Shown: in pieces, positions 4,636 to 6,997 of the stretch
Layout: every line of letters starts with the position of its first letter
Position numbering within the stretch: the first letter of the stretch is position 1
Assembly: GCA_002789465.1 (NCBI GenBank)
Contig: PFTH01000074.1
Location: 1-29,134 of the forward strand
Reading direction: 5' to 3'
Length of the DNA: 29,134 nt
From: Candidatus Roizmanbacteria bacterium CG_4_9_14_0_8_um_filter_34_12
Lineage (GTDB): Bacteria; Patescibacteriota; Microgenomatia; UBA1406; GWC2-37-13
Notes under the pieces: generated by a model
Told to the model about the DNA's origin: nothing
Database searches by the model: none
The model's input: only the letters and a program-made list of their open reading frames with translations
Position numbers and translations under genes: made by a program

Positions 4636-5820
4636 ATGGCACAAGCTGTCTTTTTGAGAAATAAACCGCATTTAAACATTGGAACAATCGGTCATGTTGA
4701 TCATGGAAAAACCACTCTTACTTCCGCTATCCATTATGTTTTATCAAAAAAAGGATTAGCAAAATTTCTTAAATATGAAGAAATTGATAAAGCTCCAGAA
4801 GAAAAAGCACGTGGAGTGACTATTAATCTTCATCATTCTGAATATGAAACCGCAAAGCGTCACTATGCACATATCGATGCTCCAGGACACGCTGATTATA
4901 TTAAAAACATGATTACCGGTGCTGCTCAAATGGATGGAGCAATTCTTGTAGTTTCTGCTCCGGACGGACCAATGCCTCAAACACGAGAACATATTTTACT
5001 TGCTCAACAAGTTAATGTTCCGGGAATTATAGTTTTCTTAAACAAATGTGATATGGTTCAAGATAAAGAAATCCTAGATTTAGTGGAAATGGAAGTTCGA
5101 GATCTGTTGACAAAGTATAAATTCCCAGGTGATAAGATTCCTGTTATTCGTGGATCAGCATTAAAAGCCCTATCTGATGATCCAGAAGGAATCAAGGCGA
5201 TTGAAAAATTAATGAAAACAGTTGATGAATATTTTCCAGAACCGATTCGTCCACTTGACAAACCATTCTTAATGCCGGTTGAAGATGTTTTTACAATTTC
5301 CGGGAGAGGAACGGTTGCAACAGGTAGAGTTGAAAGAGGAGTAATCAAAACTGGAGAAGAGGTGGAGATCGTTGGTATTAAAAATACAAAAAAATCTGTC
5401 ATTACCGGAGTTGAGATGTTTAGAAAGACCTTAGATGAGGCTCGAGCTGGTGATAACGTTGGATTATTACTTAGAGGAATTGAAAAAGATGACATTCAAC
5501 GTGGACAAGTAATTGCAAAACCAGGCTCAATCACTCCACATACAGAGTTTGAAGCAGAAGTTTATATTTTAAAAAAAGAAGAGGGTGGTCGACACACACC
5601 ATTTTTTAAGGGATATCGTCCACAGTTTTACATCAGAACAACAGATATCACAGGTGAACTTAATTTACCAGAAAAGGTAGAAATGGTGATGCCCGGAGAT
5701 AATGTTAAGATCACTGGAAAATTAATTTATCCTGTTGCAATGGAAGCAGGATTAAAGTTTGCCATTCGTGAAGGTGGTCACACAGTTGGAGCTGGTGTGA
5801 TTACGAAGATTATCAAATAA
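4636..5820 (+). CDS. tuf: Elongation factor Tu
   Basis: [28 protein letters not shown]; 394 aa. Confidence 0.99.
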
Positions 5821-5863
5821 CAAAATCAGAGATAATCTATCAGTAATTGAGCTCTTTTAAATT

Positions 5864-6172
5864 ATGCCAAAGGGAAGAATTCGGATTAAACTTAAAGCGT
5901 ATGATTATCGTTTAATTGATGAAACCTGCCAAAAATTGGTTGATACGGCAGTGCGTACTGGAGCATCGGTTATCGGTCCAGTTCCATTACCTGTTCATAA
6001 AGAGACATATATGGTTAATAAAGCATCATTTATCGATAAAAACGCTCGTGAACGCTTTGGCTTAAAAATACACAAACGTCTACTTGACATTGTTAACCCC
6101 ACTAATCAAACAATTGATTCACTCATGCATTTAGAATTACCTGCCGGTGTTGAAGTGTTAGTCAAGATGTAA
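5864..6172 (+). CDS. rpsJ: 30S ribosomal protein S10
   Basis: RIRIKLKAYDYRLID...GPVPLP...HKRLLDI. Confidence 0.98.
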   Translation: MPKGRIRIKLKAYDYRLIDETCQKLVDTAVRTGASVIGPVPLPVHKETYMVNKASFIDKNARERFGLKIHKRLLDIVNPTNQTIDSLMHLELPAGVEVLVKM

Positions 6173-6181
6173 AAAATCTGG

Positions 6182-6210
6182 TTGACCGACAGTCTTTAAT
6201 AATATATAAT
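6182..6210 (+). promoter_or_regulatory. Internal sigma70-type promoter TTGACC-17-TATAAT upstream of rplC
   Basis: -35 at 6182-6187 (5/6 match to TTGACA), 17-nt spacer, perfect -10 at 6205-6210. Confidence 0.75.
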
Positions 6211-6218
6211 AGTTCCCG

Positions 6219-6260
6219 ATGATAATTTTGTATCAACAAACTTATTATTGTTATTTTTAA
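6219..6260 (+). CDS. Candidate leader peptide (uORF) MIILYQQTYYCYF*
   Basis: ATG 8 nt after the -10 box; TAA at 6258-6260 is 2 nt before the antiterminator 5' arm; four TAT codons. It is short enough to be chance. Confidence 0.4.
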   Translation: MIILYQQTYYCYF

Positions 6261-6262
6261 AG

Positions 6263-6293
6263 CAGATTGGTTGAAATTGTCAGCCCCAATCTG
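6263..6293 (+). promoter_or_regulatory. Putative antiterminator hairpin of the rplC leader
   Basis: CAGATT/AATCTG plus GGTTGA/TCAGCC: 12 pairs (one G.U), a 2-nt bulge and a 5-nt loop; sequesters the 5' arm and loop of the terminator. Confidence 0.65.
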
Positions 6294-6303
6294 GGGCTTT
6301 TTT
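6282..6303 (+). terminator. Intrinsic terminator in the rplC leader
   Basis: AGCCCCA-atc-TGGGGCT followed by TTTTT; 5 G-C pairs. Confidence 0.75.
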
Positions 6304-6322
6304 ATTTGATTAATTTCTATTT

Positions 6323-6997
6323 ATGACAGGTTTTATTCTTGGACAAAAAAATAAACAGACACAAGCATATAATACGGCTGGTATTCGTATACCAGTAACA
6401 TATATTAAAACCTCTCCTTGTTATTTAATTGCTATTCAAAAACCAGAAACACAACGTTATTTTGCTATTAAACTGGGTTTTGGATTAGCCAATCAAATTA
6501 AAAAATCAACTTTTGGAGAAGTTAAAAAGGCGGGGATAATGACCCCGCTTAATTTTTATAAAGAGTTTCGGTTAGAGAAACATCCAACAATTAAAGCAAT
6601 CGAAGAGAATGGAAAAAGTGGAATATCAGTCGGAGATAAAAAAATGCTAATTGGAGATTTGATTGATGCTTCTATTTTTTTTAAACCCGGTGATAAGGTG
6701 CAAGTCAGTGCCATTGCTAAAGGTAAGGGGTTTCAAGGAGTAGTTACTCGTCATCATTTTAAAGGTGGTCCTCATACTCATGGACAGTCAGATCGCGAAA
6801 GAGCTCCTGGTTCAATTGGGCAAACTACTACGCCAGGACGGGTTTATAAAGGAAAACGTATGGCAGGGCGAATGGGAGGACAACGGGTAACAATAAAAAA
6901 TTTAGTTATACATGAAGTTACAAAAGAAAGTATCGCCATTGCGGGTTTAATTCCGGGGAGTAAAAAAGCAAATGTCGAAATCATAAGTAAAACCTAA
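6323..6997 (+). CDS. rplC: 50S ribosomal protein L3
   Basis: KGKGFQGVVTRHHF, HGQSDRERAPGSIG, RVYKGKRMAGRMG. Confidence 0.98.
   Translation: MTGFILGQKNKQTQAYNTAGIRIPVTYIKTSPCYLIAIQKPETQRYFAIKLGFGLANQIKKSTFGEVKKAGIMTPLNFYKEFRLEKHPTIKAIEENGKSGISVGDKKMLIGDLIDASIFFKPGDKVQVSAIAKGKGFQGVVTRHHFKGGPHTHGQSDRERAPGSIGQTTTPGRVYKGKRMAGRMGGQRVTIKNLVIHEVTKESIAIAGLIPGSKKANVEIISKT

Follow-up and report, generated by a model that had tools for sequence, protein, structure and literature searches.

Why would a near-consensus promoter lead into a strong intrinsic terminator immediately before the main ribosomal protein genes of a bacterium? This question is raised by the spacer between rpsJ and rplC in the window studied here, i.e., the complete stretch of 29,134 nucleotides from the groundwater bacterium Candidatus Roizmanbacteria bacterium CG_4_9_14_0_8_um_filter_34_12 (Patescibacteria, Microgenomates; contig PFTH01000074.1). 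The control of ribosomal protein (r-protein) synthesis is known mainly from E. coli, in which r-proteins bind their own mRNAs, and most r-protein-binding RNAs of this type are confined to Gammaproteobacteria. CPR bacteria are ultra-small, possess minimal regulatory repertoires, and have not yet been grown alone. The answer favored here, with a confidence a little above even, is that the spacer encodes a ribosome-mediated transcription attenuator of the leader-peptide type. It would control the rplC-led operon, and its sensor would be the translation of a leaderless mini-ORF of 9-13 codons rather than an amino acid or an r-protein.

Locus and promoter

In the window, tuf (4636-5820, + strand) and rpsJ (5864-6172, + strand) precede rplC (6323-6997, + strand), which encodes L3 and is the first gene of the controlled S10-spc-alpha ribosomal gene block. 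The 150-nt spacer between rpsJ and rplC holds a promoter, a leader, and a terminator. The whole element spans 6182-6304 and consists of a near-consensus promoter, a leader of about 85 nt, and a strong intrinsic terminator, the end of which (6303) lies 19 nt before the rplC ATG.

The promoter is located at 6182-6210 on the + strand, with a -35 box TTGACC (6182-6187), a 17-nt spacer, and an extended -10 box TATATAAT (6203-6210). As TTGACC-17-TATAAT, it agrees with the consensus at 11 of 12 positions and is the strongest among 20 promoter-like sites within 5 kb. Sites of this kind are as frequent there as expected from shuffles; therefore, the scan alone proves nothing, and it is the comparison with relatives that carries weight. 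Relatives share the consensus TTGAc-N17-TATATAAT, kept at a fixed distance across leaders. Indeed, at least 4 of the 6 positions of the -35 box match in 109 of 123 leaders, compared to 17 of 123 at a shifted control position. From the promoter geometry, transcription is predicted to start at 6217-6219 (+ strand), 7-9 nt after the -10 hexamer. The sequencing runs found to contain this stretch were all of DNA, with no RNA run listed.

Further upstream, a boxA-like motif, GC(A/T)C(T/A)TTTAA, is found at 5849-5863, 5-10 nt 5' of the ATG (5864) of rpsJ, whose product S10 is NusE. This motif is kept in nearly all of the 27 relatives printed (from L001-L030), regardless of the upstream sequence. It could be a signal for translation or, alternatively, a site for Nus factors, and in the latter case read-through at the terminator further down would be affected.

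Distribution and linkage to rplC

In the first 30 relatives, the same parts are present just before rplC wherever rplC is within reach. They occur in the order TTGAC-17-TATATAAT, an ATG a few bases on, a variable hairpin, C(A/G)GATTGG, and GCCCCAATCTGGGGC followed by a T run. In L018, L020, and L021, an insertion of 0.7-1.2 kb after rpsJ, which includes a gene, leaves the element beside rplC. A covariance model of the arm-plus-terminator module (R1) was searched in 151 genomes sampled from the order and matched in 118 of them, with a single significant copy in 116 and a second weak match in 2 more. By family, R1 was found in 87 of 116 genomes of f1, 21 of 25 of f2, and all 9 of f3. The window genome has one R1 copy, and the loop motif is single-copy. 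The two weak second matches (G057:C1:722342-722409 and G031:C3:89159-89220; E about 1e-3) are not upstream of rplC and are probably ordinary terminators.

The search yielded 131 distinct leaders, about 128 of which lie directly upstream of the rplC start. The distance from the module end to this start has a median of 14 nt. As no second promoter fits into this gap, the operon must be transcribed through the terminator. Judged on the sequences compared, the element is a lineage-wide conserved feature and not the result of chance.

Several loci depart from the usual layout. Two reduced variants (L040, L126) have a P1-like hairpin and a T run without the arm-and-loop module. In L129, the terminator stands alone, directly after the promoter, and three loci (L045, L052, L072) have no terminator before rplC.

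Two competing hairpins

The intrinsic terminator at 6282-6303 (+ strand) comprises AGCCCCA-ATC-TGGGGCT at 6282-6298, which gives a 7-bp stem with a 3-nt loop, and six T up to 6303. Covariation in its stem is strong, with 50 cells altered on both sides and none of 500 shuffles reaching the observed score. With this covarying stem and the short distance to rplC, the locus shows a trait of leader-peptide attenuators, an intrinsic terminator directly before the regulated gene.

The 5' arm of the antiterminator is located at 6263-6270 on the + strand (CAGATTGG; order consensus C(A/G)GATTGG). Its 3' strand, CCAATCTG at 6286-6293 (+ strand), is pairable in 93% of cells in 128 distinct modules. This strand is composed of the last two C of the terminator 5' arm, the apical nucleotides 6288-6292, which form the ATC loop and its closing A-T pair, and the initial G of the terminator 3' arm. 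According to RNAfold, the minimum free energy structure of 6217-6305 is a long imperfect hairpin pairing 6259-6274 with 6280-6301, and the centroid structure is the terminator. Only the 8-bp perfect core of the long hairpin (6263-6270 with 6286-6293) is conserved in relatives. Constrained energies computed for 6217-6303 are -20.9 kcal/mol for the antiterminator vs. -21.0 kcal/mol for the terminator, and nascent RNA up to 6294 adopts the antiterminator fold (-21.3 kcal/mol). Compared to dinucleotide shuffles, the leader fold has a z of -2.7. Among 126 leaders, the two full-length conformers differ by 0.7 kcal/mol on average, and the minimum-energy fold of the nascent RNA is the antiterminator in 117.

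Covariation of the antiterminator does not rise above shuffles; on 128 modules, its score equals the shuffle mean (238 of 500; with 33 sequences, 7 of 500). The reason is that its two strands hardly vary within the order. Where they do change, the change is mostly wobble-compatible, e.g., A/G opposite U, and compensated variants can be seen by eye in a few leaders (L025 and L246, L244, L249, L047). That the antiterminator is real is supported by conservation, energetics, folding order, and the recurrent architecture in other Microgenomates, not by covariation. No conserved nucleotides were found outside its two mutually complementary strands. Within them, five freely variable loop pairs stay fixed, which suggests, and is the best argument for, an additional partner with sequence specificity.

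The first-pass annotation of this DNA had described the near-consensus promoter, a textbook intrinsic terminator 19 nt before rplC, and a 12-bp alternative hairpin that would form before the 3' arm of the terminator is made. The promoter holds up in the window and in relatives, as does the terminator, and the nascent folds agree with the postulated order of events in the window as well as across the leaders. The alternative hairpin is indeed the minimum free energy fold, but the conserved antiterminator amounts to 8-9 bp, not 12. Of the two helices proposed for a covariation check, the terminator stem covaries; the antiterminator is conserved in sequence instead. Furthermore, the element contains two parts beyond that description, a hairpin named P1 (6217-6250) and a 13-codon ORF (6219-6260).

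One leader upstream of rplC has a special arrangement (L243, G117:C2). Its arm CCAGATTGG is followed after 4 nt by a second CCAATCT copy and then by a normal terminator. This copy could lock the arm in a local hairpin and serve as an anti-antiterminator or decoy.

A candidate mini-ORF at the predicted 5' end of the RNA

A candidate leaderless mini-ORF occupies 6219-6260 (+ strand). It begins with an ATG at 6219-6221 and has 13 codons; its TAA (6258-6260) leaves a gap of 2 nt to the antiterminator arm. Of the 131 leaders, 126 have an ATG downstream of a -10 box, at a distance of 7-9 nt in 108 of the 126. Going by promoter geometry, transcripts would begin at this ATG or no more than 1-3 nt away from it. 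The ORF is 27-39 nt long in 105 of 126 leaders, with a mode of 11 codons and a typical frame of 9-13 codons. In leaders with an expanded P1, ORFs of 48-75 nt still end beside the arm. The stop codon is TAA in 78 leaders, TAG in 31, and TGA in 17; since three kinds are in use, the conserved feature is a stop and not a sequence motif.

In 119 of 126 leaders, 2-16 nt separate the end of the stop from the arm, most often 6-8 nt. This geometry is specific to the frame of the ATG. In a non-redundant set of 82 leaders sharing less than 70% identity, the ATG frame has a stop 0-16 nt before the arm in 75, whereas the +1 and +2 frames of the same leaders have one in only 18 and 21; the leaders are related by descent and their counts overstate independence, which leaves the contrast between frames of the same sequences unaffected. 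Dinucleotide shuffles of the 82 leaders gave a mean of 14.8 and a maximum of 30 over 100,000 simulated totals. ORF length also follows the position of the arm (Spearman 0.65, vs. 0.18 and 0.11 in the other frames). With an ATG in nearly all leaders and a stop that depends on its frame, the short ORF is conserved as an ORF, another trait of leader-peptide attenuators.

The encoded peptides are unrelated between lineages. They have no shared residue pattern, and no regulatory codon runs were found in the peptides of the leader set. For these reasons, the element is not an amino-acid attenuator, and only the general mechanism of leader-peptide control is claimed. The window peptide, MIILYQQTYYCYF, is Tyr-rich, with 4 Tyr among 13 codons. 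Tyrosine sensing was considered and rejected, as relatives have unrelated peptides.

In family f3 (L232-L240), the -10 TATAAT overlaps the stop codon of rpsJ (ATGTAATATAAT). In most of these leaders, 8-14 nt separate the -10 box from the ATG; the distance is 4 nt in L237, and in L232 the ATG is hard to assign. Seven of the nine retain a mini-ORF of 10-14 codons.

Hairpin P1 (6217-6250, + strand) is an RNAfold prediction and lies inside the mini-ORF. It is predicted at the same place in most relatives, with unrelated sequences and a mean z of -1.2 against shuffles (35 leaders). Its sequence diverges freely, and no conserved nucleotides were found in it across families. P1 may act as a pause or timing hairpin for RNA polymerase. 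Retention of the AUG through pairing at the base of P1 was rejected as an explanation, since full pairing of the AUG is predicted in no more than 9 of 35 folds.

Proposed mechanism

The 5'-terminal ATG and the frame-specific mini-ORF ending before the arm point to a translating ribosome as the factor that would block 6263-6274. In the proposed mechanism, transcription from the conserved promoter would begin at the ATG at 6219 or 1-3 nt away from it. As long as the leader is free of ribosomes or a ribosome is stalled in the ORF, 6263-6270 would pair with 6286-6293 as soon as the latter is made. The antiterminator would then block the terminator, and RNA polymerase would read into rplC. A ribosome that loads on the 5' ATG and reaches the stop at 6258-6260, 2 nt before the arm, would instead occupy or melt the arm. 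The terminator (6282-6298) could then form, and transcription would end at about 6303. The r-protein operon would hence yield more when translation capacity runs short and less when ribosomes abound. The net effect would be a negative feedback on ribosome production in which general translation capacity is the signal. Translation of the ORF, the pause or timing role of P1, and the sign of regulation are what we infer from this arrangement. On the strength of the leader sequences, the translating ribosomes themselves probably set r-protein output.

The effect of a ribosome at the stop was simulated by forcing the leader single-stranded from the ATG to 9 nt past the stop. This footprint raised the number of leaders folding the terminator from 83 to 107 of 126. 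The mean number of antiterminator pairs fell from 7.3 to 5.8 only, because the usual gap between stop and arm is 6-8 nt and a terminating ribosome would cover only the first bases of the arm. In the window, with a gap of 2 nt, the footprint leaves the terminator only. The near-invariance of the antiterminator strands suggests some sequence-specific recognition, which is not needed by the ribosome model.

If this mechanism is true, CPR bacteria have found a different solution to the control of r-protein synthesis, in which the ribosome reading a tiny frame throttles the transcription of its own protein genes. As the element is short and conserved, and as the effects of mutations in it can be clearly predicted, a heterologous or cell-free system would suffice for tests, with no need to culture the organism. 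As a convenient marker, it also shows where the S10-spc transcription unit really begins in these genomes, namely after rpsJ.

Alternative explanations

The main alternative is an r-protein-binding leader like that of E. coli S10. L4, L3, or another protein of the operon would bind P1 and/or the arm and bring about termination when free r-protein accumulates, and the mini-ORF would be incidental or secondary. Such leaders are the established pattern for r-protein operons, and an L4 leader stands before rplC in Archaeoglobi (PMC7247131). The near-invariance of the arm and the terminator loop, with a varying stem and a varying P1, is what sequence-specific recognition would be expected to produce, and P1 is kept as a structure. 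Nevertheless, P1 has no conserved nucleotides across families, no Rfam r-leader matches, and the 5'-terminal ATG, the frame-specific ORF, the three stop codons, and the length of the ORF tracking the arm would all be left unexplained. Moreover, no conserved copy of the arm or loop was found in the rRNAs compared: their 7-8-mers are absent from the genome's own 16S save for one chance 6-mer, and the 23S of five relatives shows no consistent position for them (the assembly lacks the 23S of this genome). We regard this explanation as rather improbable. The first-pass annotation had read the locus as a lineage-specific r-leader; what stands of this is a conserved, lineage-wide attenuator before the rplC-led operon, while an r-protein effector such as L4 is not supported. 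An amino-acid-specific attenuator, which would sense tyrosine in the window, could account for the composition of the window peptide. Yet relatives' peptides share neither residue pattern nor codon runs, TAT is common in AT-rich DNA, and the controlled genes are not amino-acid genes, which makes it the least credible of the explanations considered.

A simpler possibility is an unregulated, leaky terminator, which would end the tuf-rpsJ transcript and damp a strong promoter to a fixed level, the arm having no switching role. No terminator was found between rpsJ and the promoter in the window, so upstream transcripts run into the leader hairpin, and the lack of significant covariation in the antiterminator is in line with such a function. 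On the other hand, the element travels with rplC and not with rpsJ, it has its own promoter upstream of the terminator, and its arm, ATG, and ORF geometry have been conserved in an order-wide set of leaders. The complementarity of arm and loop also exceeds that of shuffles in many leaders, including those of non-Roizman types (about 20 of 60 at p <= 0.05, counted by hand). A leaky terminator is, thus, quite unlikely. The linkage to rplC and the promoter contradict, in particular, the option, held out in the first-pass annotation as a refutation of its reading, that the hairpin only ends the tuf-rpsJ transcript. The element could also be a stand-alone small RNA of about 85 nt that possibly acts in trans via its conserved loop after termination. 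In favor of this are its own promoter and terminator and the near-invariance of its loop, and a small RNA derived from an attenuator has reportedly been found in Sinorhizobium. Against this speak its location immediately upstream of rplC (about 128 of 131 leaders) and the lack of another promoter there for the operon. The arm 8-mer is also neither rarer nor commoner in the genome than uniformly expected, and no target set emerged. A role of this kind appears very doubtful.

Relation to known regulatory leaders

Leader-peptide attenuation itself is textbook knowledge; what would be new is an attenuator on an r-protein operon in this form. With Rfam 15, no match was found in the whole window at the gathering score, and a search of 5600-6600 at E <= 10 returned chance-level matches only. 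For instance, the rimP model scores 19 bits here, compared to a cut-off of 47 bits. The literature search found no description of such an element in CPR bacteria and no leader-peptide attenuator on an r-protein operon. The lack of a described family, already remarked upon in the first-pass annotation, is therefore upheld.

The closest mechanistic counterparts are trpL, hisL, pheL, and ilvL of Proteobacteria. They likewise have a short leader ORF with an overlapping hairpin. As in the layout proposed here, the ORF stop lies a few nucleotides before the 5' strand of an antiterminator, whose competitor is an intrinsic terminator immediately preceding the first gene. In contrast, the element described here has no regulatory codon runs, its peptide is not conserved, and its candidate ORF is leaderless, whereas those of the trpL type are SD-led. 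Without translation, read-through rather than termination would be expected, since the element also lacks the 1:2 anti-antiterminator. As the controlled genes encode ribosomal proteins, the signal would be general translation capacity. In ermC-type leaders and the drug-response uORF attenuators of Firmicutes, the uORF has no amino-acid specificity either, and the position of the ribosome selects the RNA fold. These systems, however, control resistance genes and respond to drug-stalled ribosomes, and ermC acts on translation. The present element would instead act on the operon for the ribosome's own proteins, through an ORF predicted to start at the 5' end of the RNA.

Among leaders of translation-related operons, the S10 leader of E. 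coli, which depends on L4 and NusA, is also a transcription attenuator with a regulated terminator hairpin just upstream of the homologous block from rplC-rplD-rplW-rplB onward. The present element differs in its place after rpsJ, not before it, and in its explicit antiterminator and conserved mini-ORF; no relation in sequence or structure to the S10 leader is detectable. The L4 r-leader of Archaeoglobi stands directly before rplC-rplD-rplW-rplB (Eckert and Weinberg 2020; PMC7247131) and is, as far as the literature search found, the only described leader directly before rplC. It has this position in common with the element but is archaeal and a different RNA motif, and the Rfam models have no match here. 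The rimP leader is an attenuator with an unusually conserved terminator hairpin sequence (Naville and Gautheret 2010; PMC2965389). It resembles the element as an attenuator of a translation-related operon with a conserved terminator hairpin sequence, but operon and sequence are different, and no ORF or antiterminator was reported for it (PMC2965389).

rplC leaders in other Microgenomates

Beyond Roizmanbacteria, rplC leaders of other types occur in the Microgenomates. A wider interpretation, held tentatively and with less than even confidence, is that a direct sensor of ribosome capacity governs the main r-protein operon in Roizmanbacteria and also, with different sequences, in a large part of the Microgenomates. 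A free ribosome catching the nascent 5' end in time would translate the leaderless mini-ORF and thereby switch off about 25 r-protein genes, replacing the r-protein autoregulation of model bacteria. Different lineages might reach the same logic differently, e.g., through an SD or through a three-codon ORF inside the antiterminator.

In the Levybacteria type, an SD is followed after 5-7 nt by TTG, two codons, and a stop that falls inside the predicted antiterminator arm. By analogy, this layout supports the ribosome-sensor logic as a parallel design. The rplC leaders of the Levy- and Woesebacteria types have a perfect SD-like GGAGG(TG) (L069, L078, L084, L096, L130, L135, L141; also L050, L066, L081, L102, L104). 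The 3' end of the window genome's 16S rRNA (L196, G000:C208) is the canonical anti-SD GGATCACCTCCTTTCT.

The rplC leader of Gottesmanbacteria differs in sequence, with CCAAAAGTCTCGGATGAG followed by the terminator GACCTCAACCGAGGTC. In this type, CTCGGATGAG pairs with CTCAACCGAG and is complementary to the 5' arm, the loop, and the first 3' bases of the terminator, which is the same architecture in another sequence. Sixteen loci are of this type (L055, L056, L058, L060, L063, L064, L067, L071, L132, L139, L140, L143, L146, L153, L156, L161). In several leaders of the Woesebacteria type, the terminator loop contains CCTCC, which can pair with the SD-like box.
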